Positions 17,772 to 60,690 of a DNA stretch of 64,000 nucleotides are shown one piece after another. Numbering within the stretch: position 1 is the first letter of the stretch; each line of letters starts with the position of its first letter. Source of the DNA: an uncultured Gammaproteobacteria bacterium. GTDB taxonomy: Bacteria; Patescibacteriota; Microgenomatia; UBA8517. The stretch is taken from contig CAZGEA010000001.1 in NCBI GenBank assembly GCA_964524515.1, positions 297,522 through 361,521 of the forward strand, in the 5' to 3' direction. The notes under the pieces were generated by a model. That model did no database searches, had not been told where the DNA came from, and saw only the letters and a program-made list of their open reading frames with translations. The position numbers were made by a program, and so were the translations under genes.

Positions 17772-18886
17772 ATTGTTTTTAAATATATCTCAATAGCTCT
17801 CTTTTGATCAAAGTCAGAAGAAAATTTTTTAAAATTTCCAAATTTATACTTATTTAATATCACATTATTCATAATTTTAGAAAGAGCAAAAATATTTCCT
17901 CTCTCAAATGAAAATCCAACATTATATTTGTCAATAATTCGCTTACAATCTCCAACATCGCTTGCAATTATTGGTAATTTAAATCTTGATGCCTCAATCA
18001 TAACTAATGGTAAACTTTCATTTCTTGATGGAATTATCAAATAATCACAAATACTCATGTATTTACTAATTTCCTTTTCATTCAACCTTCCCAACATTTC
18101 AACACTATTTTGCAAGCCATTTTTTAATATAAATTTTTTCAAATCACTCTCCATATTTCCATCACCACCAATAAATAATTTATACTTTTTTTGATTAAGT
18201 AAAACACAAGCATTAAGCAAAATATCAACACCTTTTACTTTTTCTAATCTCCCCAAAAATAAAAATTTTACTTTTCCACTCTTTTTATTTGATTTAATAT
18301 TTTTTGAATCTAGATTTGTTATTGCTGGTAAAAAAATAGCGTTACGACCAACAAATTTTTTAACTTTATCATCCAATGAATAACTATTTACAAATACATT
18401 TTGTGCATTCATTAAGGAAAGATACATTAATTGTCTAATAATCGGATATCTGACGTACTTATTTAAATCCGACCCAAGACACCATATTGAATATTTATGC
18501 CCTGTAAAAATAAAAGAAATATAAGCAAATATACCAGAAGGCACTGCCCATGCTGCAAGGATGACATCAGGCTTTAATAACTTAACATGATTAATCGAAT
18601 AAACACTACCTTGATATAACAAAACAAAAAATCTAATAATCGAAAATGGAGAAGTTATTTTCCAATCACCAAGTTTTTTTCCATCACCACTCCACGGGAA
18701 CCAATTGACAGAAAAATTTTTATATTTTTCTTTGTTTCCAGGAAAAAATGGCGTTACAATCTCGATATTAGCTTTTCTTGAAAGAGAAATACAAAAATCA
18801 TAAAGAAAGGTTCCAGCATCCTTTCTTTCAAACGAGGTTGATGGGAAATTATGTGTAAATAATAATATTTTATTTTTCTTCTTCAA
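17768..18886 (-). CDS. GT4 (group 1) glycosyltransferase
   Basis: The C-terminal IIPSRNESLPLVMIEASRFKLPIIASDVG is an EX7E-type motif. Confidence 0.7.
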   Translation of the reverse strand: MKKKNKILLFTHNFPSTSFERKDAGTFLYDFCISLSRKANIEIVTPFFPGNKEKYKNFSVNWFPWSGDGKKLGDWKITSPFSIIRFFVLLYQGSVYSINHVKLLKPDVILAAWAVPSGIFAYISFIFTGHKYSIWCLGSDLNKYVRYPIIRQLMYLSLMNAQNVFVNSYSLDDKVKKFVGRNAIFLPAITNLDSKNIKSNKKSGKVKFLFLGRLEKVKGVDILLNACVLLNQKKYKLFIGGDGNMESDLKKFILKNGLQNSVEMLGRLNEKEISKYMSICDYLIIPSRNESLPLVMIEASRFKLPIIASDVGDCKRIIDKYNVGFSFERGNIFALSKIMNNVILNKYKFGNFKKFSSDFDQKRAIEIYLKTI

Positions 18887-19728
18887 ATTAATTTTCTAAT
18901 TCCAGAATCAATATTTATCTTCGGTTTCCATTTTAATTTCCGAAAAACAAATTCTGGATCACCGATCCAACAACTTTTATCAATGGGTCCAACATATTTT
19001 ATATTTGGATCAATTTTTAAACTAACAAATACTTTTTTTGCAATATAATTAAGACTAACCCCGCTACCTGTACAAATATTTTCCATAAAAAATTTGTTCT
19101 TTTTAGCATACCGTTCAATCACTAAATAAATTGCGTTACAAAGATCATCAATATACAAAAAATCACGCATCTGATTACCATCTCCTGTTAACAATACATC
19201 CCCCTTATTTTTAACCATATTAACAATCGAATTAACAACTGAATTTGAATTAGAATCAACTCCATTACCATAAACATTTGATATTCTCAAAATGGCAAGT
19301 CCACAAGTTTTCATTTTATTCGCTGAAATTAATAGATCTTCACACCATTTCTTTGTCCAACCATAAAAATTTCTTGGATCAATATTCGTACTTGTTTTAA
19401 TAATCTTCTTTTGTGATTCATAAACAGCAAACGAAGATGCAAAAACTATATATGGACAATTTATTTTACTAATACTCTTAAGAATTTTCTCTGTCAACAA
19501 AACATTGTTTAATAAATCAGCATCAGTACCTTTTGATACCCCAGCTAAGTGCACAATAACATCAAACTTAGAAAAAAATTTAGTATCATCTTTTTCAAAA
19601 TTCAAATTATCACGACCAATTTTTACAATTTTATATTTATTTTTTTGTTCTAAAAAGAAAACTAAACTACTACCAATAAATCCAGTTGAACCACTAATTC
19701 CAATCACCAATCGCCTTTTTATTGCCAT
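18883..19728 (-). CDS. NAD(P)-dependent epimerase/reductase (short form; putative 4-keto-sugar reductase)
   Basis: ISGSTGFIGSSL is a Rossmann motif and YGWTK a YxxxK motif. The gene lies adjacent to the CapD-like dehydratase. Confidence 0.7.
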   Translation of the reverse strand: MAIKRRLVIGISGSTGFIGSSLVFFLEQKNKYKIVKIGRDNLNFEKDDTKFFSKFDVIVHLAGVSKGTDADLLNNVLLTEKILKSISKINCPYIVFASSFAVYESQKKIIKTSTNIDPRNFYGWTKKWCEDLLISANKMKTCGLAILRISNVYGNGVDSNSNSVVNSIVNMVKNKGDVLLTGDGNQMRDFLYIDDLCNAIYLVIERYAKKNKFFMENICTGSGVSLNYIAKKVFVSLKIDPNIKYVGPIDKSCWIGDPEFVFRKLKWKPKINIDSGIRKLI

Positions 19729-23056: not shown

Positions 23057-23812
23057 TCATGAAGATTTTAATCTAGAATCATACTTTTTAGCTAGCTTTA
23101 GTCGATAAAACACCACTAAAGTATCCCAAAGCATTCTAGATATATTTTTAAATGTGGAAGCATGTGTCAAATCATCAAATCTATAAGTTATCTTAATCGG
23201 AGCTTCATATATTCTTTTAAAACCCAAGTAATGTGAAACTGCTAACATTTCAATATCCATTGCATATCTTTCAACCTGAAGTTTAGGTAATATTTTCTCA
23301 AGTACTTTTCTTTTAAATATTTTTATTCCACTTTGTGTATCACGAACATTAATATTAAACAATATTCTTGTGGCCATATGATATCCAAAACTAAAAATCT
23401 TTCTGCCTAATGGATATTCAACTTGGGAAGCAGGATGCCTTTTTGATCCAATAATAATATCAGCATCGTACCATTTCATATGATCCATTAGCATCATAAT
23501 CCCAGATGGCCAAATTTCTCGCCCTGCATCCAAAAATGAAATAATATCTCCTCTACTTCTAAGCATTCCAAATCTAACTGCAAATCCCTTTCCTTTATTC
23601 AAATCATATTTATATACTTTTATTTTTTTACTTTTAACTTTCTTAGCTTTCTCATATGTCTTATCAACTACTCCATCCACAACACAAATTATTTCATAAT
23701 TAAAATTGCTAGGAATTCCTTGATGGAGTACTTTATCAATTGTTCTCAAATCCTTTTCAATCGTCTTTTCCTGCTTATAGGCAGGTATAACAACTGAAAG
23801 TAAATTTTTCAT
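23057..23812 (-). CDS. GT2 glycosyltransferase
   Basis: LSVVIPAYKQEKTI...IICVVDGVVDKT is followed by a FLDAG segment carrying the DxD-type motif. Confidence 0.75.
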   Translation of the reverse strand: MKNLLSVVIPAYKQEKTIEKDLRTIDKVLHQGIPSNFNYEIICVVDGVVDKTYEKAKKVKSKKIKVYKYDLNKGKGFAVRFGMLRSRGDIISFLDAGREIWPSGIMMLMDHMKWYDADIIIGSKRHPASQVEYPLGRKIFSFGYHMATRILFNINVRDTQSGIKIFKRKVLEKILPKLQVERYAMDIEMLAVSHYLGFKRIYEAPIKITYRFDDLTHASTFKNISRMLWDTLVVFYRLKLAKKYDSRLKSS

Positions 23813-25047
23813 TATTCAAATGATAATATCGTATAAACGGTAAGAAGCAATAGTAAAAAAAGACAAGAAAAAATTGAAGCCACGATCATATTCATTACAC
23901 TCATGTGAAATAAAAATATACTTAATATATAGACAACTGAACCAAATAACGCAATATATGAAACAAAAGTTTTTCCAAGAGCCAGATTATAAAAAATCAA
24001 TATTCCAACAAATGAATAAACCACCATATATAAACCAAAAAATGGTAATAAATTATCAAAACCAAAATACTGAGATCCATAAGAAAACTGAAATATTTGT
24101 CTATGAAAAAATGTAAAAGTAAAAAGTGCAAAAAAACTAATTATCATTACAAAAAAAATTGACAAGAAAAAATATTTATATGTTGGCTTATTTTGTGCAT
24201 GGCTCTTTACTATATTTGGAAACATAACTGAAAAAACAGGTGTTGTTGCAAAATAAACAATCTTCCCAAGAGTAGACAATGCAGCATACAAACCCGCATC
24301 AAATGATAAAAAATAATGTCTTGCCAAAATAACATCTAAACTAACAAAGGCCGTTAGTGCAAGTGCCTGAACAATAACTGGAATCGAATACTTTATAAAT
24401 TTACTATAATCAAATGAAATATTTTCAATCTTTATAAACTTTTTAGTGGACCACCTCTCCAAATACAAAACAGCGATTAAAACAGCGATTAATATTCCAA
24501 ATAGAGCACCATCAACAGCAAAACCTAAAACAACCAACAACAAGCCGATCAAAAGCTTTCCCGCCCCTGATATAAAATTAGGAATTACTGCTGATAAAAA
24601 ATCAAGTTTTCCTTGTGCAACTGCCTGATTATAAGTAGCATGAAGTGATAAGTAAAAAATTGGAGCCAAATATATAACCTTATAAATACTATCCAAATGT
24701 AAATAAGTCATAATAAATGGACTAACTAAAAATATAAATAAAGCAATAAAAATTCCAAATTTAACTACAAATCTTTTCAACGCCCAATATGTTTTACTTT
24801 GATCTTCAATATCAAATGAGGATGAAATAAATTTTACGATAGAAACGTTAGCCGACTGCGGAACAATACTAATTATATATAATACTGAAAAAACTGAAGC
24901 TAAAACGCCATATTGAACAGGACCCAAAAACCTACCCATCAATATGTGATAAACAAAATTAATAACATTAACAAACATTGAACCGATAACCATAATGCTA
25001 CTACCTAAAATAAAAGGGTGTGTAATAAAATTTTTTATTCTTTTCAT
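23812..25047 (-). CDS. Wzx/MOP-superfamily oligosaccharide flippase
   Basis: About 12 predicted TM helices with the length and hydropathy pattern of polysaccharide biosynthesis flippases. ORF track gives ..25083; the Met of MKRIKNF at 25047 avoids overlapping the upstream stop. Confidence 0.55.
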   Translation of the reverse strand: MKRIKNFITHPFILGSSIMVIGSMFVNVINFVYHILMGRFLGPVQYGVLASVFSVLYIISIVPQSANVSIVKFISSSFDIEDQSKTYWALKRFVVKFGIFIALFIFLVSPFIMTYLHLDSIYKVIYLAPIFYLSLHATYNQAVAQGKLDFLSAVIPNFISGAGKLLIGLLLVVLGFAVDGALFGILIAVLIAVLYLERWSTKKFIKIENISFDYSKFIKYSIPVIVQALALTAFVSLDVILARHYFLSFDAGLYAALSTLGKIVYFATTPVFSVMFPNIVKSHAQNKPTYKYFFLSIFFVMIISFFALFTFTFFHRQIFQFSYGSQYFGFDNLLPFFGLYMVVYSFVGILIFYNLALGKTFVSYIALFGSVVYILSIFLFHMSVMNMIVASIFSCLFLLLLLTVYTILSFE

Positions 25048-25048
25048 A

Positions 25049-26230
25049 TCATGATAACCAATAACCATTAGAAAACAGTCCAAAAGAAATGTAGTTCAAA
25101 ACAACCATAAATAGAAGAATAACACAAAAAAATAAAAATCTTTTATAACCTAAAGAAAGATATTTTGCAAACATTATATAAACAACAAAACAAGGCAGTA
25201 AATATCTCGGCATCGATGAAAAACTTCCTGATAATGTAGGTATTAAATATATAAATAATGAAAACATAAAATACGAAAATCTAACTTTTCTAAACGAAAT
25301 TAAAATGATAAACAAAAACAATATACTTAATATAAACTCCAAATACCCTGAATACAAATTAGGAAAAAAATGATAATTAAGATTTGGAAGTATCTTAAAT
25401 ATATATCTATACAAAACTTGAGGTAATAGTACAAAATGAGATGATCTTTGTGAGCCAAACGTCTGCTCTAAATTATTATAAAAAGCGAAAAAATTACCTG
25501 TTTTTAATTTCAAAAAAGCCAAATATACGATTAACCCAAAAGTAGAAAAAGTTATTTTAAAAAAATTTAAAATAGTATAGTTACTTATCCGCAACTTCCA
25601 ATTATTTTGACTAAAATATTCAATTAATATAGAAATAAACATAGCGATTCCAACAACACGGGTTGCAGATGCAAACATAGCCAATAATGCTGCAGGAAAC
25701 CACTTACCTTTTCTGGCAAAATAAAAACTCCATATACAAAGTACTAAAAAAAAGGATTCTGTATAAACTGACACCAAATAAAATGATGTTGGAAATAATA
25801 TCAACATAACAATCGACATTAAAGTAATCTTTTTAGAAAAATCAATTCTAAGTAACTTCCAAAAACCAAATATTAAGAATAAAAAACAAAAAAATGAAAC
25901 AAACATTCCACTATATAAATATGAGTAAATTCCAGCTCCCCATAAAAAAGAAATTTTACTCAAAACCAATGAATATAATGGAAAATAATAATATTCTGAA
26001 TTGGTATATCCATTTCTCGCTAGGTGTATATATCTTTCGCCATCAAAATTTGCAAAAGACCAAGTCGTAGGGCTTCGTAAATACTCTTTCTTTGAACCAC
26101 CAAGATAATCATTTTGTAAGGGGAAAAAATTTGACGAAGTATTAATTGTAAAAATTAAAAAAAATCTCCAAAAAATAATTATAAAAATTATTAATAATAA
26201 TTCTCTATTCTTTTTCAAAAAAGTAGACAT
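25049..26230 (-). CDS. PIG-V/Gpi18-like mannosyltransferase family membrane protein (GT76-like)
   Basis: FDGERYIHLARNGY...YYFPLYS matches the WDAxHYxxIAxxGY...FFPLYP signature of Mannosyl_trans2 proteins. ORF track start is 26293; the Met of MSTFLKK at 26230 abuts the upstream gene. Confidence 0.5.
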   Translation of the reverse strand: MSTFLKKNRELLLIIFIIIFWRFFLIFTINTSSNFFPLQNDYLGGSKKEYLRSPTTWSFANFDGERYIHLARNGYTNSEYYYFPLYSLVLSKISFLWGAGIYSYLYSGMFVSFFCFLFLIFGFWKLLRIDFSKKITLMSIVMLILFPTSFYLVSVYTESFFLVLCIWSFYFARKGKWFPAALLAMFASATRVVGIAMFISILIEYFSQNNWKLRISNYTILNFFKITFSTFGLIVYLAFLKLKTGNFFAFYNNLEQTFGSQRSSHFVLLPQVLYRYIFKILPNLNYHFFPNLYSGYLEFILSILFLFIILISFRKVRFSYFMFSLFIYLIPTLSGSFSSMPRYLLPCFVVYIMFAKYLSLGYKRFLFFCVILLFMVVLNYISFGLFSNGYWLS

Positions 26231-26232
26231 GT

Positions 26233-27288
26233 TTATTTCATCCCAGCTACTCGCTGATACACCTGCAATGTCTCGTTTGCAGTCTTTTTCCAAGAAAAAT
26301 TAGAGTTACATTCAAATCCTTTTGATATTAACTTTTTTTGCAATAATTTATTCACTAATACTTTATTTAGTGAATCAACTAAAGAATCAACACTGTATGG
26401 ATCAAAAGGTAAAAAAGCACCGTCAGCTATTTCAGTAAAAACTTGCGTTCGAGAAGCAACAACTGGGCAGCCAGAAGCGAATGCCTCAAGAATTGGTAAA
26501 CCAAACCCCTCATAAAACGAGGGCTGACAATATACTGTTGCCAAATTATAAATCAATGATAAATCATCATTTGAGACAAAACCCAACCTTTTAATAAATT
26601 TATTATCGCCATATTTATTCAAAAACTCCCTAAAAGGTTTATTTTCAATATTTGAAAAATCAACATTATCATCGGCTGCCTGTTTTCCAACAATTACTAA
26701 ATACTTTTTAAGTCTCACGGCTGCCTCGCATAAAGTAATTAAATTCTTATTATAATTAACGTCACCTGTATATAAAATAAATTCACTTGGAAGATCATAT
26801 TTATTTTTAATAATACTTAATAATTTTCTATCATTAATTATTCTATACGACTCACCAGCAGCCAAATAAATAACACTTATTTTCTCGTCAGGGATATTCA
26901 AAAATCTAATTATATCTTTCTTCGATGTCTCAGATATTGTAATAATTTGGTCAACTCTACTAATTAAAATCCAATTTATTAAAAAATAAATTTTACCTTT
27001 AATACCAGATGGATATTTACTAGGATAAATTAATCTAATTAAATCATGAATTGTTAAAACTATTTTTGTATTTTTAAAAAAAGGCAGTGACAAAAAATTT
27101 GGATGAAAAGATGGAAAATGAACCACATTATACTTTTTTGAAATATTTTGATCCCAACAATCAACTTCCTCTATTAAAATTTCCTTATTCTTTTTCAATT
27201 CATCAACCAACAAACGCATGTGCATTCCAATTCCCCGTATTGAATCACCTTTAACATTTGGTCCTTTATCGATTGCAATTTTAATCAT
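26233..27288 (-). CDS. GT4 (group 1) glycosyltransferase
   Basis: The C-terminal QPSFYEGFGLPILEAFASGCPVVAS is an EX7E-type motif. Confidence 0.75.
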   Translation of the reverse strand: MIKIAIDKGPNVKGDSIRGIGMHMRLLVDELKKNKEILIEEVDCWDQNISKKYNVVHFPSFHPNFLSLPFFKNTKIVLTIHDLIRLIYPSKYPSGIKGKIYFLINWILISRVDQIITISETSKKDIIRFLNIPDEKISVIYLAAGESYRIINDRKLLSIIKNKYDLPSEFILYTGDVNYNKNLITLCEAAVRLKKYLVIVGKQAADDNVDFSNIENKPFREFLNKYGDNKFIKRLGFVSNDDLSLIYNLATVYCQPSFYEGFGLPILEAFASGCPVVASRTQVFTEIADGAFLPFDPYSVDSLVDSLNKVLVNKLLQKKLISKGFECNSNFSWKKTANETLQVYQRVAGMK

Positions 27289-28160
27289 TTCAATTCAACA
27301 ATTAATTTATAATAAGACAACGGAATTTGAATTGATGAATAGGCACTCCACAAAAAACCTCTTATTCCATCCATATAACCTTTATGCCGAATGTATAAAC
27401 GAAAAAAATAAAAGGAAGGCTCAAACAAGCTGTATTTAACAAAAGTAAAAAAACTATATTTAATTCCAGAATCTTTCATCTGATTTGCTCTAAAACTTGT
27501 ATATCTGTTTAATCTAAAAATATACCTTTCAAGAGTAGGTGAATCATAATGTTCCATATCATTAAATAACCATGCAACCCCACCATCTATTTCCATAATT
27601 TCATGAACTGATTTACCAGGAAGTCTTGCTTTGCCTTTCTTGATTAATCTTATTGCTGGATCAGGATAGACACCACCATGAATTAATGGTGCACCTATAA
27701 AAATATTTTTTCTAGGAATAAAAAAAGCAACAATTTCATTGCTAGTTCTTTTATCAATCAATCCATCTCTTTGCTCAATAATCTTTTGATGTTTTTCAAA
27801 AAGCATATTTTTTACACTATTCGGATTAATTCTTTTTTTAATTTGACTATCACTCATTAAAATAACTTCCTTAATCTCTTTTGCAAGTAATGGAGTAATA
27901 ACTTCGTCAGCATCAAGCTGAAGGATCCATTTTCCATGGGCAATATCTATTGCCTTTTGCTTTGTAATATGAAAATTATCCTGATGTTCAACTTGATAAA
28001 CTTTAGCACCATATTTTTTTGCAATCTCAACAGTCTTATCTGTTGAATACTCATCAAATATAATTATCTCATCAGCTATTTCAGATATTGAATCGAGACA
28101 TCTTCCAATGTTTTTTTCTTCATTTCTTGTTGCCAGCACTACTGATAAATTTTTGCTCAT
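27285..28160 (-). CDS. GT2 glycosyltransferase
   Basis: LSVVLATRNEEKNI...IIIFDEYSTDKT is followed by a QLDADEV segment carrying the DxD motif. Confidence 0.75.
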   Translation of the reverse strand: MSKNLSVVLATRNEEKNIGRCLDSISEIADEIIIFDEYSTDKTVEIAKKYGAKVYQVEHQDNFHITKQKAIDIAHGKWILQLDADEVITPLLAKEIKEVILMSDSQIKKRINPNSVKNMLFEKHQKIIEQRDGLIDKRTSNEIVAFFIPRKNIFIGAPLIHGGVYPDPAIRLIKKGKARLPGKSVHEIMEIDGGVAWLFNDMEHYDSPTLERYIFRLNRYTSFRANQMKDSGIKYSFFTFVKYSLFEPSFYFFRLYIRHKGYMDGIRGFLWSAYSSIQIPLSYYKLIVELK

Positions 28161-28161: not shown

Positions 28162-29832
28162 TTAAATTTCTATGATCCTAAAATAAGTGTAAGAATTAAC
28201 GCCTTTTATTTCTTTTGCATTTGGATATGCACTTTGGGTAATTTCCTCACTTGTTCCTACAACTATAGCATTAATCTTTTGTTTTTTTATATCATCCAAA
28301 TTTATTTTCCCAAATCTGAATTTATCAAAATAACTAACAGTTGAAAAACCAAATGCATCAGGAACAGAAAGTACACCTTCGCTTTGAAATTTTACTGGTG
28401 AATAATTTAAATAGAAAAGAAACAATATGTATGGCTGATCATATCGATCAGTAACAAAAATAAGTCTATCGTCATTCTTATATGTACTATTCAAATAATC
28501 TACCAATTCAAAAACCCCATATTGCGATGAAAAAGGTAATTCTTGTGACATTCTTTTATAGTAATTATTTAAATACAAGAAAAAAAATATTAACAAAGTT
28601 GAAAATGTTACTACTTTTGCAATAAAAATATATTTTCTATTTAATATATTATAAAAACGAACAACTCCATAAGAAAAAATTATAGTCAAAGGAATAATCA
28701 TAAAAGCCGATCGAAGTGCATGTGGTGCCTGAAAAGTTAATGAAGCAGGTATTGGTGCTAAAAGCAACATTAACAATAGTATTAAGCCTCGTTTATTTAA
28801 TCTATCTTTAAATAAATAAAATAAACCTAAAAACAAAAACGGCAGTACATATAAATATAGTTGACCAAATCCTGGAACTTTATTTCTCTGTATTTCATCC
28901 CCATTTACAAAAAGATAATTAAATGAGAAATGAGAAAAATAATTTGTAAATATTCTTGATCCATATCCTGTAAATCTATTAAATACTAACCTAGTAATAA
29001 TTGAATTAGGATTTGGCTGTTGTCCCCGCAGTTCGTTAATCCTATTTAACGGTCCTAGATCTGAAAATATACCCACTCCTTGCGCTCTTGATAGAACTTT
29101 ACCATTCAACAAATCTCCACCTAGTGGAATTAAAAATACCAACGATATCAATAATGTCAAAAAAATTTTATAAAACCTTTTAAATAAATTTTTATAAAAA
29201 ATAAAGTGCAATGATATAAAAATTAATGTTCCGATTACTCGTCCTGAATGATATGTATAAAGAACCAATATATAAAATATTAAACTGCATATATAATTCC
29301 TAAATTTATCAGTACGTTGATATTTTAAATAAAAATAAACTAAGAACATCAAAAATGTAGTACAAACATTCACTTCCCAAGCTCCTCTTGAAAAATGAAT
29401 GTGCCACGGTGAAATGGCTAACATTAAGGCAGACACTAAAGCAATCACTTTTTTATTTTTACTTTCTCTAAATATTTCAAATGACAAATAATAGATACCA
29501 AGAATTCCAATCAAACCAAAAATTAATCCCGGCAACCTAACAGACATTACATTTAAACCAAAAAATTTAACAAATGGAATTGCTAAATAAAAATACAATC
29601 CTGGCTTATAATCATTAAAAGATTGAAAATTTACAGGCCAAATATTTCCGTGTTCATCCTTACCAGTTAAAATTAAAGAAAAAACATTGTAACCAATTGC
29701 CGCTTCGTCAGCATTAAGTGCAGGTAATGTATTTAAATTATATATTCTCAAAACAAAGCTAATGAATAGCACAATTAACAATAAATAATTTTTATTAAAT
29801 ATTTTCATAAATATAAAAAGCAATCTTTCCAT
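28162..29832 (-). CDS. PMT-like GT39 family membrane glycosyltransferase (paralog A)
   Basis: The first loop reads NADEAAIGYN, a DE motif like yeast PMT DEvhfG. It is followed by GNIWPVNFQ...KPGLYFYL. There are at least 10 TM helices. Confidence 0.8.
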   Translation of the reverse strand: MERLLFIFMKIFNKNYLLLIVLFISFVLRIYNLNTLPALNADEAAIGYNVFSLILTGKDEHGNIWPVNFQSFNDYKPGLYFYLAIPFVKFFGLNVMSVRLPGLIFGLIGILGIYYLSFEIFRESKNKKVIALVSALMLAISPWHIHFSRGAWEVNVCTTFLMFLVYFYLKYQRTDKFRNYICSLIFYILVLYTYHSGRVIGTLIFISLHFIFYKNLFKRFYKIFLTLLISLVFLIPLGGDLLNGKVLSRAQGVGIFSDLGPLNRINELRGQQPNPNSIITRLVFNRFTGYGSRIFTNYFSHFSFNYLFVNGDEIQRNKVPGFGQLYLYVLPFLFLGLFYLFKDRLNKRGLILLLMLLLAPIPASLTFQAPHALRSAFMIIPLTIIFSYGVVRFYNILNRKYIFIAKVVTFSTLLIFFFLYLNNYYKRMSQELPFSSQYGVFELVDYLNSTYKNDDRLIFVTDRYDQPYILFLFYLNYSPVKFQSEGVLSVPDAFGFSTVSYFDKFRFGKINLDDIKKQKINAIVVGTSEEITQSAYPNAKEIKGVNSYTYFRIIEI

Positions 29833-31498
29833 CTAAAAACCTTATTTCAGTTATTAATTTCCATTTTAAATCATTAATTGTTTGCGACGTTGCAATCAGA
29901 CATTTAATGTTTGCACAATCATATTCAAATCCCTTTTCAGTTTTAAAGACTGATCCTTCCTTTGGAATTTGCCAATCATTCAAAAAAACATATTTATCAA
30001 AACTATCTACCCAAAACCAATCACTTTGCCCATATCGAACTAAATTTTGATCATTATTTAAAAAAGTTGGAGCCAATCTTTCATAAAAATAAAAGAACTC
30101 ATGTGGTTCGCCATACTTTTTCGTAACAAAAATTTTGTCATATTCATTTTTATTATCCAAAGAATATTCAACCAATTCTTTATATCCATATTGCCAAGAC
30201 TGGGAGTATTTCATTTTGTAATCACCAAAATACAAACTTAAATATCTAATAAAAAAACCAAACAGTATTATTAGAAAAATATAAAAAAATACTTTCTTAA
30301 ACTTTAACAGATACACAATTCCGATTGCACTTAAAAACATAGGAAGTGGTACTAAAACAAAAGATCTCAACGCATGAGGTGCATCCTTAGTAAGTGATGC
30401 CGGTATAAAAGCTATTAAAAACCAATAAAATAAAAATTTAACTACTCTATTTTTAAAATTCTTTATTAATATAGTAATAGAAATCAATACTGTCACCAAT
30501 TCAGGAAAATATAGCTGTCCAAAATTAGGTATATTAAACTGGTATTGAGTACCACCATTAATAAATAAATAATTTGGATTTAAATAAATTAAATAATTTT
30601 TAACAAATTCTAATCCAAAAAAAACTGGTCGATTAAAAACCAGTCTTTCAACTATATTTGGCAAATTACTTTTTAATCTAAAATCAATTATCTGTGACAC
30701 AACACCAACATCAACTAGTTGCAAAGTTCTATATCTACTTTGCCCCTCCAAAGAAAACAACTCATGACCTAAAAATAAAAAACTAATCAAAATTAAACTT
30801 AACAAAATATATAAACGATATTTAGAATTAGTAAAAATAATTTTTAGATTTGAATAAAAAATAAAAAATAAACCAAAAAACATTAAAGGAACAAAAACTC
30901 TTGCTGAATTATATGCCCACATCGAACTAATCATAAAAAAGACTCCCAAAAATAAAAATTTATTTAATTTAGTGTTAATTGATCGAAATATAAAATATAA
31001 ACCTAAAATAATTAAAAAATTAGATAGATTTGCCTCTAACGCAACTCTTGATAAGAAAAAAGTCCATGGCTCAATTGCAACCAAAAAAGCAGAAACCAAA
31101 ATGATACTTTTTTTATTTTTAACTAAGAAAGTAATCTTAGAAAACTCAATCAATTCATTACACAATAAATAAGTAAACAAGACTATTCCCAACCCAGAAA
31201 ATAATGATACCACTCGTACTGTAAATACACTCAGTCCAAAAAACTTCACAATTGCTGATGTCAAATAAATATACAATGGTAATTTATAATCACCATATGC
31301 CCTAAATAAAACTGGAAATTTATTTCCCCATTCATCAATTCCTGATTTTGCAATCGAAAAAGCATTGTATCCGAGTGACACTTCATCCCAATTCATAGAA
31401 ACAGGCATTGAATCTATTCGATAAATTCGAATTATAAACGCAAATATTAATATCAAAATCAAACAAACTAAAGTAATATTCTTTTTTATTAAATTCAT
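29795..31498 (-). CDS. PMT-like GT39 family membrane glycosyltransferase (paralog B)
   Basis: NWDEVSLGYN...GNKFPVLF...KLPLYIYL is colinear with paralog A. Confidence 0.8.
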   Translation of the reverse strand: MNLIKKNITLVCLILILIFAFIIRIYRIDSMPVSMNWDEVSLGYNAFSIAKSGIDEWGNKFPVLFRAYGDYKLPLYIYLTSAIVKFFGLSVFTVRVVSLFSGLGIVLFTYLLCNELIEFSKITFLVKNKKSIILVSAFLVAIEPWTFFLSRVALEANLSNFLIILGLYFIFRSINTKLNKFLFLGVFFMISSMWAYNSARVFVPLMFFGLFFIFYSNLKIIFTNSKYRLYILLSLILISFLFLGHELFSLEGQSRYRTLQLVDVGVVSQIIDFRLKSNLPNIVERLVFNRPVFFGLEFVKNYLIYLNPNYLFINGGTQYQFNIPNFGQLYFPELVTVLISITILIKNFKNRVVKFLFYWFLIAFIPASLTKDAPHALRSFVLVPLPMFLSAIGIVYLLKFKKVFFYIFLIILFGFFIRYLSLYFGDYKMKYSQSWQYGYKELVEYSLDNKNEYDKIFVTKKYGEPHEFFYFYERLAPTFLNNDQNLVRYGQSDWFWVDSFDKYVFLNDWQIPKEGSVFKTEKGFEYDCANIKCLIATSQTINDLKWKLITEIRFLDGKIAFYIYENI

Positions 31499-31500
31499 AT

Positions 31501-33150
31501 CTATATCTTCACTATATAATATGCAGAATTTCCGTTTTGGTAATTAACAACTTCATTTGGAACAATATCTTTAGGAAAATCTTCGGGAAAACCCACATAA
31601 ACAGTGTTCTCTTCAGGTTTTTCATTCTTTAAATCAAACGATTTAAAAGCGTAATTTCCAATTGAATAATCTGAAAGCTGATCTACCCACCCTGAAGTTT
31701 CGGTTCTATATTTAAACCAACTTGTATTTGCAGCAGACTGTGCAAATAATGGATCAATTTTTCTATAAAACAAATAATAAATATGTGGTTCTGAAATTTT
31801 TCTCGAAACAATTATATTCATTCCATCATATTTTGATATTTTCTCAAAAAGACTATCCATCCCATAAATCATGGAACTTTGATATCTAATCGGTTGTATA
31901 AACACATAACTTTCAAAAAAATTAAGGAATTGAAAACTGAAAACTGAAATTATTATCACAAAAAAAATATTTCTAATATATTTTAATTTATAAATATTAT
32001 CAAAAATATAAATAAATCCAATTGAAGAAAAAATAACTAAAAAAATATCCATCAAAACTACTCTATTTGCAGCATGACCAGGTCCCACTGTTAACGCTCC
32101 AGGAATAGGCGAAAGAAGTAATGACAAAATTAAAATTGAATATTTAATATTAAATTTACCTTTTACAAAATCTTTAATCAATTTAAAAACAAAGCCAATC
32201 AAAAAAATAATTTCAACAATCCAAAGCAATCCAATTCCAGGCACCATCCCATATGTTGCCTCGTTGGGTCCTTGTGTAAACAAGAATTCAAAGGAAAAAT
32301 AACTTAAATATTGTTTTGCAAATCTCGAAACAAATGCCAAAACTGGGTTTTGAAACACTTTTAATAATAAAGTTGGTGTACCCCCAACCAACAAGTCAAA
32401 TCTACGCTGAGGTTCATCAAGTGCCCAGGATAAATAACTTGATGAATTTAATCTCGAAGAGGTTCCAAAATATCCTGCAAAGGCAATAACTGTCATTGTC
32501 AACAAAATAAATATAAAAACTAAAAAATACTTATCCATAAATATTTTTCTTTTTTTAATAATTATTTTCCAAGCAACAAAAAGCAAAACAATCAGTGGAG
32601 TTAATATTCTTGCACTATGATAAGAATATATTGATAATATAAACAAAAATAAACTTAATAAATAATACTTTTTTGAATTATTTTCAGCATATATAAACGA
32701 AAGTATTGTGGCAGGAATAAAAAAGGTAATTAAATTAGCCTCAAATGCACCTCTTGAGAGCATAATATGCCAAGGTGAAATTGCAAGAAACAAAGATGCA
32801 ACAATAGCAGTTTTTCGACTACCAGTTAACTCTTTTGTTAAAAAATACAAAATTACCACTGCAAATGATCCAAATATTGCACCAGCTAGTCTAGTTGAAA
32901 ACTCAGTTAAACCAAAAATAAAAACAAATGGAATCGATAAATATGAATAAAGTGGTAACTTAAAATCTCCAAACGATTCTAAACTAAGAGGCATAAACCT
33001 TCCCCATTGGTCCTTTCCAGTTTTCAAAATACTATACGAATCATAACCAAAAGATGCCTCATCAGGTGTAAATCCAGATGGATATGAAGACAAACTTACA
33101 ATTCTAAGCAAAAAACCCAATAAAAATATTATTAAAATATATTTCCACAT
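31501..33150 (-). CDS. PMT-like GT39 family membrane glycosyltransferase (paralog C)
   Basis: TPDEASFGYD...GRFMPLSL...KLPLYSYL is colinear with A and B. Confidence 0.8.
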   Translation of the reverse strand: MWKYILIIFLLGFLLRIVSLSSYPSGFTPDEASFGYDSYSILKTGKDQWGRFMPLSLESFGDFKLPLYSYLSIPFVFIFGLTEFSTRLAGAIFGSFAVVILYFLTKELTGSRKTAIVASLFLAISPWHIMLSRGAFEANLITFFIPATILSFIYAENNSKKYYLLSLFLFILSIYSYHSARILTPLIVLLFVAWKIIIKKRKIFMDKYFLVFIFILLTMTVIAFAGYFGTSSRLNSSSYLSWALDEPQRRFDLLVGGTPTLLLKVFQNPVLAFVSRFAKQYLSYFSFEFLFTQGPNEATYGMVPGIGLLWIVEIIFLIGFVFKLIKDFVKGKFNIKYSILILSLLLSPIPGALTVGPGHAANRVVLMDIFLVIFSSIGFIYIFDNIYKLKYIRNIFFVIIISVFSFQFLNFFESYVFIQPIRYQSSMIYGMDSLFEKISKYDGMNIIVSRKISEPHIYYLFYRKIDPLFAQSAANTSWFKYRTETSGWVDQLSDYSIGNYAFKSFDLKNEKPEENTVYVGFPEDFPKDIVPNEVVNYQNGNSAYYIVKI

Positions 33151-33156
33151 CCAGTA

Positions 33157-34452
33157 TTAATTATACCTAAATTTTTTTCTTAAAGTATGAACAGATGTAA
33201 AAATAATTACAAAAATTAATAACATTAAATTAACAAAACTAGATATATATTGAAATTCAAAATTTATCTGTAAAAATTTTTCAACTCCTGGTAGACTTGG
33301 AACCCAAAATAAATGGTACAAATTAAAAACATAGGTAATATTTAATAAAATTAAAACAAATATCATAATATTTCTAACAACTATTTTCTGTTCAAGACCT
33401 AGATAAACTATAAATAGTGGAAAAAATGGATAAAGATATCTCTCATGCATTTTTGTTAAAAACATAAATGATGAAAATGAAATTAAAGCCAAGGACAAAA
33501 AAACACTACTTTCTGTCTTATTTCTAATAAAATTAAACAATGAAAATATATATAAACCAAAAAATATAAGATAACCAAATGTACTATATGAAAATATATA
33601 AAAAATACTTGAATCCAAAATTTTTCCTGGGTTAATTAACCACCAAAAATTAAATGCGTTTGCAGTTAAATATCCAATCTCACCTGCAAACAATCTAGTT
33701 TTATATAAATCAAAAATCCAAACAAAAAAATCAGTACTTAAATGAAAAGGTAAAAAAAGAATCACAAATACAGCTACTGAAGCCAAAATCCCCTTTAATA
33801 AAATCTTATAATCGACGTTATTTTTAAAAAGATAATAAACTATAAATGGCAAATATATAGATAACGATAATTTATAAAGGCAACAAAGAGTAAACAAGAA
33901 TATCGAAAGGAAAATTCTCTTCCTTACTAGAAAAATCACACTTAAAATACCCAAAAAATTTAGAATTGAATCAGTTTGCCCCCAAACTGCAGAGTTATAC
34001 CAAGAAACGGGCATAAAAAGCCAGACAACAGAAACAATCGCCGCCAACTTTGGCTTCTTTACACTAAAGAAAAATTTAAACAAAATAAAACCAATTCCCA
34101 AATCAAACAATATTCCAGGTACTTTTAAAACAAAATATTTACCATATATTTCCCAATACCAAACTAATTGTGAAGGAAAAAAAGAAACCAAATCATTTAT
34201 CTTATAAATATATTTATTGATAGTTTGATAAACATAAGCATCCGCTGCAAAAACATAAATATAAAGCGCTGGCTGGTTTGGTTTAGAATATTCCCATTCA
34301 CTCCTATCATAAAACCCATTTGTTCCATATTTTAATAAAGTTTCACCCCAAGAATAATTGTTTCTCAAATCGCCATGATATGAAGAAGGAATCAAAAAAA
34401 GTCTAAATACAAATGCGAGAATAAATATAAAAATAATATACTTCTTGTACAT
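33157..34452 (-). CDS. polytopic membrane protein, unknown (candidate GT-C-like glycosyltransferase)
   Basis: 431 aa with 10 or more hydrophobic helices. It sits between GT39 paralogs. I see no clear motif. Confidence 0.4.
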   Translation of the reverse strand: MYKKYIIFIFILAFVFRLFLIPSSYHGDLRNNYSWGETLLKYGTNGFYDRSEWEYSKPNQPALYIYVFAADAYVYQTINKYIYKINDLVSFFPSQLVWYWEIYGKYFVLKVPGILFDLGIGFILFKFFFSVKKPKLAAIVSVVWLFMPVSWYNSAVWGQTDSILNFLGILSVIFLVRKRIFLSIFLFTLCCLYKLSLSIYLPFIVYYLFKNNVDYKILLKGILASVAVFVILFLPFHLSTDFFVWIFDLYKTRLFAGEIGYLTANAFNFWWLINPGKILDSSIFYIFSYSTFGYLIFFGLYIFSLFNFIRNKTESSVFLSLALISFSSFMFLTKMHERYLYPFFPLFIVYLGLEQKIVVRNIMIFVLILLNITYVFNLYHLFWVPSLPGVEKFLQINFEFQYISSFVNLMLLIFVIIFTSVHTLRKKFRYN

Positions 34453-34457
34453 ATACC

Positions 34458-34997
34458 CTAAAGCACTCTACCAAAAATACCAATAACACCCAAACCAATT
34501 AACCAAAACCTAATTAACCTACCAATAAAAGTTGCAAGAAAAAAATTCTTGTATTCAAACTTCAAATATCCAGCAATTAAACCAATAAAATCGTACGGTG
34601 TTGGCAAAAGCGCTAAAAAGAAAAGCCCATAAACTCCATATTTATGCAAAAATTCGATTGTATCCTTCGTTTTCTTACTATCAGTCTGAATTGGAATCAT
34701 ACTATGTGCATATTTACCCACCCACCATGACAACAAATCATTAATTGCCATACCCAAGGATGACACTAAAGCTACTGGAAATGCACCAAAATATCTTGAA
34801 ACAATTGGTATTAAAAGCATTCCTGGTCCACCTATCAAGTTAAACAAAAATACTCCAAAATTTCCCAATCTCAAAAATGGTCCTGGCTCAACAAATATAA
34901 AAAAAGTTAAAAATATATATAAAATTCCCAAAACAAAAACAGTCTTTCTGAAGTTTTTTGAAGCAGCTAATTTATTTATTAATTTCATTTTTTCCAC
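34458..34997 (-). CDS. DedA/SNARE-associated (VTT domain) family membrane protein
   Basis: 179 aa. The core LIGGPGMLLIPIVSRYFGAFPVALVSSLGMAINDLLSWWVGKY resembles the DedA re-entrant helix region. Confidence 0.6.
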   Translation of the reverse strand: MEKMKLINKLAASKNFRKTVFVLGILYIFLTFFIFVEPGPFLRLGNFGVFLFNLIGGPGMLLIPIVSRYFGAFPVALVSSLGMAINDLLSWWVGKYAHSMIPIQTDSKKTKDTIEFLHKYGVYGLFFLALLPTPYDFIGLIAGYLKFEYKNFFLATFIGRLIRFWLIGLGVIGIFGRVL

Positions 34998-36684
34998 TAA
35001 AAATATAATATGCAGGCAATCCAGACGGGAACTTTATGTAATAAACAAGTTTTAAATCCTTAGGTGTTCTATCTGGCTCCTCTATAAGATTAACATTAAC
35101 TTCCTTTGCAGATGCTAAATAAAGCATATCAGATCCAAGCACTTTACCCCAGTCATAAATCCCAAGTCCATTTGGACTACCAAAATAATATTTATCAATA
35201 TATGAAACTTCACCAAAACCACCAACTATCTGTTTCTTAAAAGGATATCCCAATTGCCATTTCTCAGGTGGATACTGCATACCTGCTGCAAAAAATATCC
35301 AAGGTGGCTCATCATATGTTGTTACAAACACCTTACTATATTTACTTTGTATCTTTTCAATCTCAGAAAATGATTGCGAAAAACCATAATGCCACCACTT
35401 TTCTGAATCAATTGGATAGTGAAACCAATATTGGTGTTGATAAAATAAAAAATCAAAAACAAAAAGGATTAAATAGCAAATCAAAAACAAATATTTTAAA
35501 TTTCTTTTTTCTTTAAAGACAGACCAGAGTCCATAACTCATTACAAAAACAATTGGTGGCAAAATTAATATCAATCTTGTCGCATGATTTGCGCCATCTC
35601 TTGTTAAACTCGATGGCAATATGCCAATTAAAATCATAATAAAAAGTATATATCCAAACTTTCTATGTTTTTCTGATTTTGATAAATAATAAATACCAAG
35701 AAACAATAAAACTATCTCAACATGATAAAAAACACCCATTTGAGGAACGGTATGTCTCAAATTCGGATCACCTTTATCAAACAAAAAATTAAAAGACAAT
35801 GAAGTTAAAAAATTATTTTCAATTTTTGAAAATATAATTTGATATTTATTATGAAAATATTTAGAAAGTACGGCAGAACCTTGATCACTATCAATATCTC
35901 TCACAGGACCTAATTGATATTCTATTGATGGATCACTAAATACACTTAAATAATTAAATCTCTGAGCGCCTTGTCCAAACAAAGTTGAATAAACAGTTAA
36001 AGAACCAATAATCAATAAAACAACAACACCTATAAATAATTCACTCTTTTTTAAATTAAATATCTTTTTACGATAAAACAAAAACAAAACTATCAAAATA
36101 ATTGGTGTATATATTTTAGCTGTACTATATATTAACGGTGTCAATGCAAAACAAGCGGCGCTAATCCACAGATATTTACCCTTTTGTGTATTAATTGCTC
36201 TAAAAAATGTCCAAAAAGCAAACATAATAAAAAACAACAACATTGTTACCTCAAAACCAGATCTACTATATTGAATATGCCATGGCGAAAAACACAAAAT
36301 TAGACTTGACATTAACGCCAAAGAATTACTTTTAGTAATTTCTTTTATTAAATAAAATGCAATCAAAACTCCAAATATTCCAAATATTGCAGCTGGAAGT
36401 CTCACTCCCCATGCAGTTATTCCAAAAATTTTTACTGTAGGAACTGATGCATATAAATATAATGGCGTTCTCCACTCAGCCAATGAATGAAATTCAAGCG
36501 GCATAAAATTTCCAGAATAATCACGACCCGTATTAATAATTGATAGTGCGTGATAGCCAACATCAAGTTCATCTCCAAAAAGAGACGGTGGATTTTTATC
36601 TAATTTCCATAACCTCAAAAATGAGGCTGCAATCAAAATTAGAAAAATTAGTATTAATATTTTTTTATTTTTTGACTTATCCAT
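34972..36684 (-). CDS. PMT-like GT39 family membrane glycosyltransferase (paralog D)
   Basis: FGDELDVGYH...GNFMPLEF...RTPLYLYA is colinear with paralogs A-C. Confidence 0.8.
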   Translation of the reverse strand: MDKSKNKKILILIFLILIAASFLRLWKLDKNPPSLFGDELDVGYHALSIINTGRDYSGNFMPLEFHSLAEWRTPLYLYASVPTVKIFGITAWGVRLPAAIFGIFGVLIAFYLIKEITKSNSLALMSSLILCFSPWHIQYSRSGFEVTMLLFFIMFAFWTFFRAINTQKGKYLWISAACFALTPLIYSTAKIYTPIILIVLFLFYRKKIFNLKKSELFIGVVVLLIIGSLTVYSTLFGQGAQRFNYLSVFSDPSIEYQLGPVRDIDSDQGSAVLSKYFHNKYQIIFSKIENNFLTSLSFNFLFDKGDPNLRHTVPQMGVFYHVEIVLLFLGIYYLSKSEKHRKFGYILFIMILIGILPSSLTRDGANHATRLILILPPIVFVMSYGLWSVFKEKRNLKYLFLICYLILFVFDFLFYQHQYWFHYPIDSEKWWHYGFSQSFSEIEKIQSKYSKVFVTTYDEPPWIFFAAGMQYPPEKWQLGYPFKKQIVGGFGEVSYIDKYYFGSPNGLGIYDWGKVLGSDMLYLASAKEVNVNLIEEPDRTPKDLKLVYYIKFPSGLPAYYIFSGKNEINK

Positions 36685-37454
36685 ATTATTGAACTAAACA
36701 AGTAATGACCAACATATCCATAATAAATTTTACTAGAAGGAATTAAACGTTTCCATTGATCTTTTGCTTTCACTATATTTTTACCACTTTCCCCATGTAA
36801 ATGAATAAAATGACTTGTGGCCAAATAATATATTTTTAAATTCAATTGTTTAACTTTTCTACAATAATCAAAATCCTCAAAATACATAAAATAACGTTCA
36901 TCCATAAATCCAACCTTTTTATATCCAATTGGCGTAATTAAAAATACAGCAGCAACAGCACACTCAACTTGCTCAAAACTATCTGTATCTGGAGTGTATT
37001 TATCAAGAATTGGTCCCTTATTTAACAAATATTGTCTAACAACTCTATTAAAATTCGGTAATCTATAAACCGAGGGTTGAACTGTTTTATCTTTATTTAA
37101 AAGTCTCGGTACAACAACAGCAGCATCCAAATGCTCTCCAGCAAAATTAATTAATTTTTCAATCTGACCTTTTGCAACCAACGTATCAGAATTAAGAAGT
37201 AACTTATATTCACCTTTTGATTCTTTCAATCCAAGATTATTCGCTTTTGAAAAACCCAAATTTGTATCATTTAACACTAGCTTAAAATTACTTTTTTTTA
37301 TTTTTCTAAATGCTTCTTCACTTCCATCGACTGAATTATTATCAATCAAAATAATTTCATAATCCATATTAATCTTTGCAGAATAAATTGATTCAATACA
37401 ATCAAGCGTTACCTTTTTTGTATTAAAACTAACAATAATTATCGATAATTTCAT
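36654..37454 (-). CDS. GT2 glycosyltransferase
   Basis: LSIIIVSFNTKKVTLDCIESI...IILIDNNSVDGS has the DxD region. Confidence 0.75.
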   Translation of the reverse strand: MKLSIIIVSFNTKKVTLDCIESIYSAKINMDYEIILIDNNSVDGSEEAFRKIKKSNFKLVLNDTNLGFSKANNLGLKESKGEYKLLLNSDTLVAKGQIEKLINFAGEHLDAAVVVPRLLNKDKTVQPSVYRLPNFNRVVRQYLLNKGPILDKYTPDTDSFEQVECAVAAVFLITPIGYKKVGFMDERYFMYFEDFDYCRKVKQLNLKIYYLATSHFIHLHGESGKNIVKAKDQWKRLIPSSKIYYGYVGHYLFSSIIWISQKIKKY

Positions 37455-38350
37455 TCTTTAATATAATTAGAAAAAATATCTTCATCAGAAACAATTGCCT
37501 CAACTTTTTCTCTCTTCCTAGAATCCATCACAGCAAAAATTTTTATCATTGCAAAAAAAACAACTTTAATATAACCAGGGTGAATGACTGTTCTTCTTAA
37601 TAAATTAAATATATGATTTTTTAGCATTTCATTACTTGTTAAATTTTTCCAATGAAACAATAAATAATTTCTCTCCTTTATTGTATTCAAATAACTTAAT
37701 TTAAAATTTGAACTGTTAATAACTGACTCATGTTCGTGTTTTACATTTGCACTCCTATCCCATTTCACAATCAAACCTCTTTTTTGTGCTCTATATGAAA
37801 TATCAACATCTTCCCAATAAAAAGGTGATAAGACTTTCTCATCAAATCCATGAAGAATAGTCCAATGACTTTTTCTAAAAATTGCTGACCCTCCACTTGC
37901 CCAAAAACTAACTTCACTATTTGTTTTATCACCTAAATTTGAATGAATTAAAAAACCGCTATCAAATTTAGCAGTTGCCGGTCCGTAACCTTTCTCATGA
38001 AAAGAAACAGCAAAAACTCTTTCATCATCAAATATTTTGTAAACATTTTTTAAAAAATTACTTTCAACCGACACGTCAGTATTTAGCAATACAACCAAAT
38101 CACCTTTTGCATTTGACACTCCTTTATTACAAGCTTTAGAAAAACCTAAATTTTTAAAATTACGAATCATCTTTACATTTTTAAAATTATTTTCAATATA
38201 TTCAACTGAATTATCAGTAGATCCGTCATCAACAATAATAATCTCAACAATTTTATTAACCTTATTTTCAAATGACTTTAAAACAGAAGGCAAATGTTTT
38301 TCTAATAATTTCTTTCCATTCCAGTTTGGAATAATAATTGATGTATTCAT
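37451..38350 (-). CDS. GT2 glycosyltransferase
   Basis: TSIIIPNWNGKKLL...EIIIVDDGSTDNS has the DxD region. Confidence 0.75.
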   Translation of the reverse strand: MNTSIIIPNWNGKKLLEKHLPSVLKSFENKVNKIVEIIIVDDGSTDNSVEYIENNFKNVKMIRNFKNLGFSKACNKGVSNAKGDLVVLLNTDVSVESNFLKNVYKIFDDERVFAVSFHEKGYGPATAKFDSGFLIHSNLGDKTNSEVSFWASGGSAIFRKSHWTILHGFDEKVLSPFYWEDVDISYRAQKRGLIVKWDRSANVKHEHESVINSSNFKLSYLNTIKERNYLLFHWKNLTSNEMLKNHIFNLLRRTVIHPGYIKVVFFAMIKIFAVMDSRKREKVEAIVSDEDIFSNYIKE

Positions 38351-58801: not shown

Positions 58802-58972
58802 ATGACACAGGAAAGATTAAATCTCACAGCTTGGCGTGGAAAAGAATTTCTTCTTAAACTATCAGGAAAAGAGGCAACCAGAAGGATAAAAAGATTTCAA
58901 GAAGATCAAAATCCAAAAATTAAATACGATATTGATAAAATTACTTCTTCTGTTTTGAACCCTTCCAAATAA
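58802..58972 (+). CDS. small lysine-rich hypothetical protein (56 aa), speculative
   Basis: An ATG-initiated ORF, MTQERLNLTAWRGKEFLLKLSGKEATRRIKRFQEDQNPKIKYDIDKITSSVLNPSK, lies in the 164-bp gap and overlaps the 3' end of the downstream minus-strand gene by ~30 nt. Confidence 0.2.
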   Translation: MTQERLNLTAWRGKEFLLKLSGKEATRRIKRFQEDQNPKIKYDIDKITSSVLNPSK

Positions 58973-60663: not shown

Positions 60664-60690
60664 AAAATATTATATAATCTTAAAGCTATA

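Follow-up and report, generated by a model that had tools for sequence, protein, structure and literature searches.

ArnT-like GT-C glycosyltransferases in an ancient operon array of Microgenomates: candidates for extracytoplasmic glycan assembly

The four paralogous genes

To which glycosyltransferase family do several adjacent but strongly diverged gene copies in a small bacterial genome belong, and what might they build? The question is raised by four open reading frames (ORFs), here named paralogs A, B, C and D, in a 64-kb stretch of DNA (the window) from contig CAZGEA010000001.1 (assembly GCA_964524515.1, positions 297,522 to 361,521), deposited as an uncultured Gammaproteobacteria bacterium and placed by GTDB among the Microgenomatia of the Patescibacteriota. 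An earlier note on this DNA had taken them for a near-tandem array of protein O-mannosyltransferases (PMTs, family GT39), recognisable by a catalytic Asp-Glu (DE) pair, that arose through an old, lineage-specific expansion and might serve multiple acceptor specificities. The four colinear paralogous ORFs were confirmed at the positions listed in Table 1, all on the minus strand, on which the window (G+C approximately 28.6%) is coded almost wholly. "Near-tandem" was also an apt description: A, B and C adjoin or overlap, with spacings of +2 and -38 nt, while D lies two genes away, separated from C by a DedA/VTT gene and by a gene for a 431-residue membrane protein (M431).

The four proteins could be aligned colinearly from end to end at 29–35% identity, and pairwise BLASTP comparisons gave E values of 1e-41 to 1e-69 (4.5e-69 for the full-length paralogs B and A), which is far beyond chance. 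Their first-loop motifs are NADEAAIGYN, NWDEVSLGYN, TPDEASFGYD and FGDELDVGYH, in which the DE pair (D42-E43; residue numbers follow protein A) is invariant, as it is in a 44-sequence alignment of the family. The G(N/R)xxP(V/L)x(F/L) block that follows is likewise present in all four paralogs, but the LPLY(I/S)YL block described alongside it is exact in B and C only, A reading PGLYFYL and D reading TPLYLYA.

Family assignment

The paralogs are not PMT (GT39) orthologs; they are ArnT-like enzymes of GT-C class A. The Pfam model PMT_2 (PF13231; gathering threshold 26.1 bits) was passed by A, C and D with 30.7, 45.6 and 49.7 bits, respectively, and the PMT model (PF02366; gathering score 22.7 bits) by C (42.3 bits) and D (36.4 bits), in both of which PMT_2 scored higher; A and B did not match PMT, and B had no Pfam match of its own even when the scan was relaxed to E <= 5. 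The scores of C and D against PF02366 speak for a reading in which A–D are bacterial PMT-like protein O-mannosyl- or O-hexosyltransferases, each with its own class of secreted or membrane proteins as acceptors and perhaps forming hetero-oligomers in the manner of Pmt1-Pmt2. Against it, PMT_4TMC (PF16192) and MIR, the PMT-defining modules (the lumenal MIR in the eukaryotic enzymes), were not matched by any of the four at E <= 0.01 in the Pfam scan. Moreover, the curated NCBIfam equivalog for bacterial Pmt, NF058602, with a cutoff of 800 bits, was matched by D alone, at 25.2 bits over 82 residues, and not by A, B or C. Searches of PDB chains with a four-sequence profile, the 44-sequence profile and C alone returned no PMT, only marginal STT3 and ArnT matches.

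The sole significant PDB sequence match was obtained with D in phmmer, and it was ArnT of Cupriavidus (5ezm; E 0.004, residues 23–227). Named homologs belong to Patescibacteria/Microgenomates and are labelled just "glycosyltransferase family 39 protein" or "ArnT-like", the majority of homologs carrying PF13231. Comparison of structures revealed a GT-C transmembrane core, and acidic residues are found in the outward-facing first loop, in keeping with the GT-C superfamily, class A. The likeness to ArnT (GT83) does not extend to its pathway, since no ArnA-, ArnB- or ArnD-type domains were found among the 53 window ORFs scanned. A match to YfhO (PF09586) or DUF2142, which the earlier note had named as an outcome that would overturn its assignment, was absent for A–D at E <= 0.01 and for B also at E <= 5. 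The PMT-like label thus stands as far as the GT-C fold and the PMT/PMT_2 neighbourhood in Pfam are concerned, and a likely misannotation is corrected, because A–D are not PMT orthologs.

Predicted structure and the position of the DE pair

An AlphaFold2 model of A, built from the 44-sequence alignment, reached a pLDDT of 91.4 and a pTM of 0.90. When it was compared with known structures by Foldseek, the top match was ArnT (E 2.3e-8, with the alignment spanning the full length), followed by catalytic subunits of OST (1e-7 to 1e-5) and ALG12 (3e-5). The best PMT appeared only at rank 22 with an E value of 4.6e-4, at least four orders of magnitude behind ArnT, and Pmt1 gave 0.07. The C-terminal region of the model (residues ~435–556, about 120 residues) forms a soluble alpha/beta domain, in place of the four-helix transmembrane module of PMTs.

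The helices of the model, taken together with the positive-inside rule, predict 11 transmembrane (TM) helices, an internal N-terminus and an external C-terminus. The five short cytoplasmic loops are rich in Lys and Arg in all four paralogs, and the short external loops carry one or two such residues each. All 29 family-invariant residues were accounted for in external loops, outer helix ends or the external C-terminal domain, save G389, which lies within TM10. The DE pair is accordingly placed by the model at the extracytoplasmic face, in the first external loop (EL1) directly after TM1, which agrees with the periplasmic position that the earlier note had proposed to look for. The predicted topology equals that of Pmt1 and Pmt2, for which 11 TM helices, N-in/C-out, are reportedly given in the paper on the 6P25 structure, and this is a further point in favour of a PMT-like role.

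The alignment of the DE pair with that of PMTs was examined using loop-1 sequences taken from the PDB (6p25, 9e61 and 9i5k), in which the pair is D77-E78 in Pmt1, D92-E93 in Pmt2 and D80-E81 in Pmt4. The bait that pulled these chains from the PDB was a consensus sequence, and only the retrieved sequences were used onward; a homolog search with a 55-residue Pmt4 fragment yielded only exon-like pieces of 35–92 residues, which served solely for the PMT loop-1 profile. In the best hhalign alignment, the family sequence LNaDEAaiG fell in register on vvFDEVHFG of the PMTs, DE on DE, but over 26 columns only and with a probability of 1.6%. ArnT carries the same pair in the sequence G-P-D55-E56-G-R-Y (after a +3 offset of the PDB construct), and because of this the DE pair does not identify a PMT, contrary to its earlier reading as a catalytic signature of these enzymes. 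The surrounding loop points the same way. The family spaces DE and the (K/H)P motif 35 residues apart, compared with 31 for ArnT and 22 for PMTs; an S/T-G-x-D...W hairpin is common to loop 1 of the family and of ArnT, and E84-K85-P86 of ArnT corresponds to D74-x-K76-P77 of the family. The DE pair is therefore equivalent in position to that of PMTs, yet it is a general feature of GT-C class A, and it sits in a loop of ArnT-like build. In sum, the four proteins align with one another as had been expected, with D42-E43 invariant, but PMTs are not their nearest characterised relatives.

Orthogroups and age of the array

The family is large, with more than 3,000 matches in a word-indexed search and 7,123 clusters at 50% identity (E <= 1e-30) in an exhaustive one. 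Almost all of the 80 Microgenomates loci compared, which came from GTDB species representatives, held four to six family members in tandem. Clustering of 326 full-length members resulted in five orthogroups, four of which contain A (80 members), B (66), C (48) and D (32), while the fifth, X, has 73 members. Identity is 43–51% inside orthogroups and 28–34% between them, and the canonical order is D-C-B-X-A from 5' to 3'. The conserved synteny reads [GT2 GT2] D - M431 - C - (0–2 copies of a GT-C like the one at 47332) - B - X - A - GT2 - GT4 - M414 - Wzx - GT2 - GT4, where M414 is a membrane protein of 414 residues. Among the 80 loci, 32 (e.g. L006, L008, L017, L018 and L021–L025) bear record titles such as "uncultured Gammaproteobacteria" or "Pseudomonadales"; as they share the Microgenomates operon synteny and a similar G+C content (0.28–0.45), these titles look like placeholders or wrong taxonomy.

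The array spans Woese-, Ames-, Shapiro- and Blackburnbacteria, and its fixed order and five orthogroups across the 80 loci demonstrate that the duplications are older than the radiation of these groups. The high divergence noted earlier therefore does reflect old duplication, but not an expansion specific to this lineage: a recent, genome-specific expansion was rejected on the best-match margins that separate the orthogroups (100–400 bits), and the window is in fact one member short of the norm. Of the 66 loci with both B and A, 64 have X between the two, and only the window and one further locus (L058) depart from this. At the corresponding junction of the window, B overlaps A by 38 nt (29795–29832), and thus no remnant of X is present there.

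Residues D42, E43, D59, R99, R149, Y194, R249 and R374 are conserved to at least 87% in each of the five orthogroups (D42-E43 to at least 90%). As all five keep this catalytic set, each orthogroup is probably an active enzyme, judging from the sequences, and pseudo-enzyme paralogs were rejected as an explanation. Residues that distinguish the groups are located in EL1, EL4 and EL5, at positions 77, 258, 312, 316, 371 and 373. These loops shape the donor and acceptor sites in solved GT-Cs, and the pattern fits differing specificities.

Proposed function

We regard it as rather probable, if far from assured, that A–D each contribute their own residue or linkage to a conserved glycan, either of the cell surface or lipid-linked. 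In such an assembly line, DPMS/GtrB-like GT2 enzymes of the same island would make a polyprenyl-phosphate-sugar on the cytoplasmic side, which would then be flipped across the membrane. The active site, centred on D42-E43 where the first external loop begins, would face the outside of the cytoplasmic membrane; each paralog would there pass a single sugar from the donor to an acceptor at the outer surface, and the DedA protein may recycle the polyprenyl-phosphate. Systems of three components, namely a GT2, a flippase and a GT-C, are an established route of extracytoplasmic glycan decoration (PMC11127046, PMC8035078). The same set is co-located here, as DPMS/GtrB-like GT2s, a Wzx-like flippase and the GT-Cs A–D, is syntenic in related loci and may well work jointly. 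In addition, M431 and M414 resemble ALG6, ALG3, PIG-M and PimE, which are elongators of lipid-linked glycans. An assembly line is the most economical reading, because donor synthases, flippase and ALG/PIG-M-like GT-Cs share the operon. From this operon context, sequential glycan steps are likelier than the several acceptor specificities in protein O-mannosylation that had been suggested earlier.

Several observations weigh against this proposal. The function is deduced by homology at only 8–16% identity to characterised enzymes, and it is gene packing by itself that suggests co-transcription of the operon. In the conserved operon, nothing could be positively identified as an initiating phosphoglycosyltransferase, a polymerase or a ligase. 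Furthermore, GT-Cs of similar size glycosylate proteins in monoderms, as found for Cbes_1864 of Caldicellulosiruptor (PMC6151902) and for PgfM1/M2 and PgtC2 of streptococci (PMC12041528). Finally, the GT2 adjoining A is most like protein and peptide glycosyltransferases; its best PDB matches are GmaR (E 4e-14) and enzymes of the ThuS/SunS type (E 1e-10), which hints that one of the steps could have protein as its substrate. A protein acceptor is thus possible, and the acceptor is not decided by structure alone.

Both the monoderm precedents and the neighbouring GT2 lend weight to PMT-like protein glycosylation as the function of A–D, alongside the PF02366 scores, the register of the DE pairs and the topology. 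Nevertheless, besides disagreeing with PMTs in family models, fold and loop 1, A–D belong to a set of five orthogroups fixed in one operon, where characterised bacteria make do with one Pmt, and an operon that also contains Wzx, GT4s and ALG6/PIG-M-like GT-Cs typically serves glycan assembly. We therefore consider this explanation unlikely, though the most serious of the alternatives.

Patescibacteria are generally held to be monoderm and without lipid A. This speaks against a second alternative, in which A–D, as ArnT/Rgt-like modifiers, would attach charged or neutral sugars to a membrane-anchored lipid, for instance a glycolipid or a polymer resembling lipoteichoic acid, and thereby adjust the surface charge, the part that ArnT plays on lipid A. 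In its favour, ArnT is the nearest of the solved structures, and no other PDB chain gave a significant sequence match; homologs bear the JGI annotation ArnT-like; and a DedA gene lies within the array, DedA flippases having a functional link to polymyxin resistance that depends on ArnT (PMC12893004). However, identity to ArnT is only 11–12%, the domain scans of the window gave no Ara4N pathway genes of the ArnA/B/D type, and five fixed orthogroups together with Wzx, GT4s and ALG-like GT-Cs are more than a single lipid decoration requires, so that we find it improbable. Still less credible is a third alternative, that the paralogs share one function as an obligate hetero-oligomer in which some subunits act mainly as scaffold or in acceptor binding; this would suit the almost universal co-occurrence of the orthogroups in fixed order, the overlapping start and stop codons suggestive of coupled translation and the known heterodimers of tandem paralogous GT-Cs (EmbA-EmbB, 7bvf; Pmt1-Pmt2, 6p25), but not the full catalytic set in every orthogroup, none of which looks like a pseudo-enzyme, or the window and L058, which manage without X and show that the set is not strictly obligate.

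Operon neighbours and other genes of the island

The genes that accompany the array are listed in Table 1. The short GT2 is a candidate polyprenyl-phosphate-hexose synthase, and a second putative donor synthase, judged by its similarity to P. furiosus DPMS (5mlz; E 1.3e-41, residues 7–357), is predicted elsewhere in the island at the far right of the listed genes. M414 has a paralog at 57602–58777 on the plus strand (BLASTP E 6.7e-9). The GT-C nature of M431 and M414 derives from their own profiles and a model; when the profile of the A–D family was aligned with the single sequences by hhalign, probabilities of 4.6% and 0.5%, respectively, were not significant. For membrane proteins of the window that had no assignment, Pfam scans at relaxed thresholds gave no match.

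Table 1. Positions of the array genes and their neighbours in the window
Feature	Position	Strand	Description
Paralog A	28162-29832	minus	556 aa; ArnT/PMT_2-like GT-C, orthogroup A; last gene of the array; structure modelled
Paralog B	29795-31498	minus	567 aa; ArnT/PMT_2-like GT-C, orthogroup B ("c", 66 members); catalytic residues retained
Paralog C	31501-33150	minus	549 aa; ArnT/PMT_2-like GT-C, orthogroup C ("d", 48 members)
Paralog D	34972-36684	minus	570 aa; ArnT/PMT_2-like GT-C, orthogroup D ("e", 32 members); first gene of the canonical D-C-B-X-A array
Two GT2 genes	36654-37454, 37451-38350	minus	PF00535; upstream of D; "GT2c GT2b D" in L007, L032, L048, L058
DedA/VTT-domain membrane protein	34458-34997	minus	179 aa; PF09335 VTT_dom, E 2.8e-17; between D and M431
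M431	33157-34452	minus	431 aa; class-B GT-C, ALG6/ALG3/PIG-M/PimE-like; kept inside the array
GT2 (GT-A)	27285-28160	minus	PF00535; directly after A; syntenic in nearly every related locus
GT4	26233-27288	minus	PF00534 + PF13439; syntenic downstream partner
M414	25049-26293	minus	414 aa; PIG-M-like GT-C; own profile against PIG-M, E 5.5e-5; syntenic downstream
Wzx-like (Polysacc_synt) flippase	23812-25083	minus	PF01943 + PF13440; syntenic
Short GT2, DPMS/GtrB-like	23057-23812	minus	PDB 5mlz DPMS, E 2.1e-15; GtrB, 1e-8; syntenic; candidate polyprenyl-phosphate-hexose synthase
Dol-P-Man-synthase-type GT2 with GtrA/DPMS TM domain	58941-60095	minus	PF00535 + PF04138; near full-length DPMS homolog

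The DedA gene sets the window apart, as no DedA homolog was found within 10 kb on either side of the array in the 80 related loci. DedA proteins are C55-P (undecaprenyl-phosphate) flippases (PMC12893004, PMC11474028), and the gene looks like a local acquisition and a candidate recycler of polyprenyl-phosphate.

The array belongs to a run of 31 co-directional minus-strand genes (21304–57576) with gaps of -64 to +26 nt. A scan for promoters returned background numbers (121 found against 124 expected) and terminator-like sites were mostly intragenic, and no operon boundaries were drawn from them. The window holds 17 GT-C genes, 14 of them PMT_2-like and three PIG-M/ALG6-like, which cover 44% of its bases; besides A–D, there are thus at least ten more genes of the PMT_2 type and three of another GT-C class. 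Some 15 GT2 and five GT4 genes, two Wzx-like flippases and four methyltransferases are also present. For a bacterium with a small genome, 17 GT-C genes over 44% of 64 kb is an extreme investment.

Some of the remaining genes are worth recording. An 873-residue protein encoded at 844–3465 (minus) has a PMT_2-like GT-C part at its N-terminus and an F5/8 type C domain (discoidin, galactose-binding-like) at its C-terminus, so that the GT-C carries its own carbohydrate-binding module. Within the glycan island, the gene at 9433–11088 (plus) codes for a B12-binding radical SAM enzyme that may modify sugars, for example by C-methylation; its orthologs lie downstream of the array in several loci (e.g. 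L049, L051, L057 and L071–L075). At 16347–19728 (minus), a PglF/CapD-like 4,6-dehydratase (CoA_binding_3 + Polysacc_synt_2), a GT4 and an NAD-dependent epimerase are grouped, resembling a nucleotide-sugar module of the 6-deoxy-HexNAc type whose orthologs are often found at the far end of the conserved operon. A gene for a DHH/DHHA1 phosphoesterase (54314–55291, minus) is inserted between the GT-C genes at 52842–54332 and 55301–56890. The region 60100–63820 stands outside the glycan theme, with a Yip1-domain membrane protein, TrmD (tRNA m1G37 methyltransferase, plus strand) and a secreted CAP/SCP-domain protein, after which, at the right-hand end, a further GT2 (chitin-synthase-like group 2) is found.

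Significance

The mechanistic class of these enzymes is already known, as are the generic annotations of the proteins. New here are their placement as ArnT-like, the operon array of five orthogroups that extends across the superphylum and the recognition of M431 and M414 as ALG6/PIG-M-like GT-Cs; no description of the array came to light in a literature search on O-mannosyltransferases, mannosyltransferases and GT39 in Patescibacteria or the Candidate Phyla Radiation (CPR). The envelope of CPR/Patescibacteria, the interface between ultra-small episymbionts and their hosts, is almost uncharacterised, and the array is a concrete candidate locus for a conserved Microgenomates surface glycan. Its value is that of a lead for envelope biology and enzyme discovery rather than of a new principle.

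A more far-reaching idea, which we put forward as speculation and would not expect to hold in full, is that Microgenomates share a hallmark envelope polymer, assembled mostly outside the membrane by a fixed line of seven to nine GT-Cs (the five ArnT-like orthogroups and the ALG6/PIG-M-like enzymes) that is fed by DPMS-type synthases. If so, one ancient operon would be the bacterial counterpart of the ALG pathway in the lumen of the endoplasmic reticulum (ER) or of mycobacterial arabinan synthesis and would take up several percent of a ~1-Mb genome, and the polymer could be central to how an episymbiont builds its surface or attaches to its host.

Comparison with known systems

Among characterised enzymes, the PMTs (Pmt1/Pmt2/Pmt4, 6P25/9E61; Rv1002c; GT39) differ from A–D in a first loop that is 13 residues shorter and in the 4-TM module at the C-terminus, which a soluble domain replaces in A–D. 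ArnT of Cupriavidus metallidurans (5EZM/5F15; GT83; COG1807) is considerably closer, sharing the GT-C class A fold, the C-terminal extracytoplasmic domain, the D-E pair after TM1 and the long loop 1 with its hairpin and K-P motif. ArnT uses a polyprenyl-phosphate monosaccharide as donor, and A–D may do likewise. It differs in its low identity to A–D, in its 13 TM helices compared with the 11 predicted here and in being a single gene rather than an array of five orthogroups; moreover, its acceptor, lipid A, is not expected in Patescibacteria, and genes of Ara4N synthesis were not found in the window.

At the level of the whole locus, the Gram-positive three-component systems (a GT2 of the GtrB/CsbB/GacI type, a flippase and a GT-C such as GacL, YfhO or PgfM1/M2) follow the same logic with the same three kinds of genes (PMC8035078, PMC11127046). 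As a rule, each modification in those systems has one GT-C of its own, frequently a member of the YfhO family, whereas the present operons hold seven to nine GT-Cs and A–D do not match YfhO. As builders of lipid-linked glycans, the ER-lumenal ALG pathway (ALG3, 9, 12, 6, 8 and 10) and the mannosyltransferases of glycosylphosphatidylinositol and phosphatidylinositol mannoside synthesis (PIG-M, PimE) can also be compared, but the ALG pathway is eukaryotic, with dispersed genes and a known acceptor, in contrast to the single bacterial operon described here. The mycobacterial arabinosyltransferases encoded by embC-embA-embB (7BVF), together with the Aft enzymes, offer a further likeness, as they too are ancient, paralogous GT-C genes in tandem, and their products, which have an extracytoplasmic C-terminal domain and form hetero- or homodimers, build a wall polysaccharide stepwise outside the membrane from a polyprenyl-phosphate-sugar.

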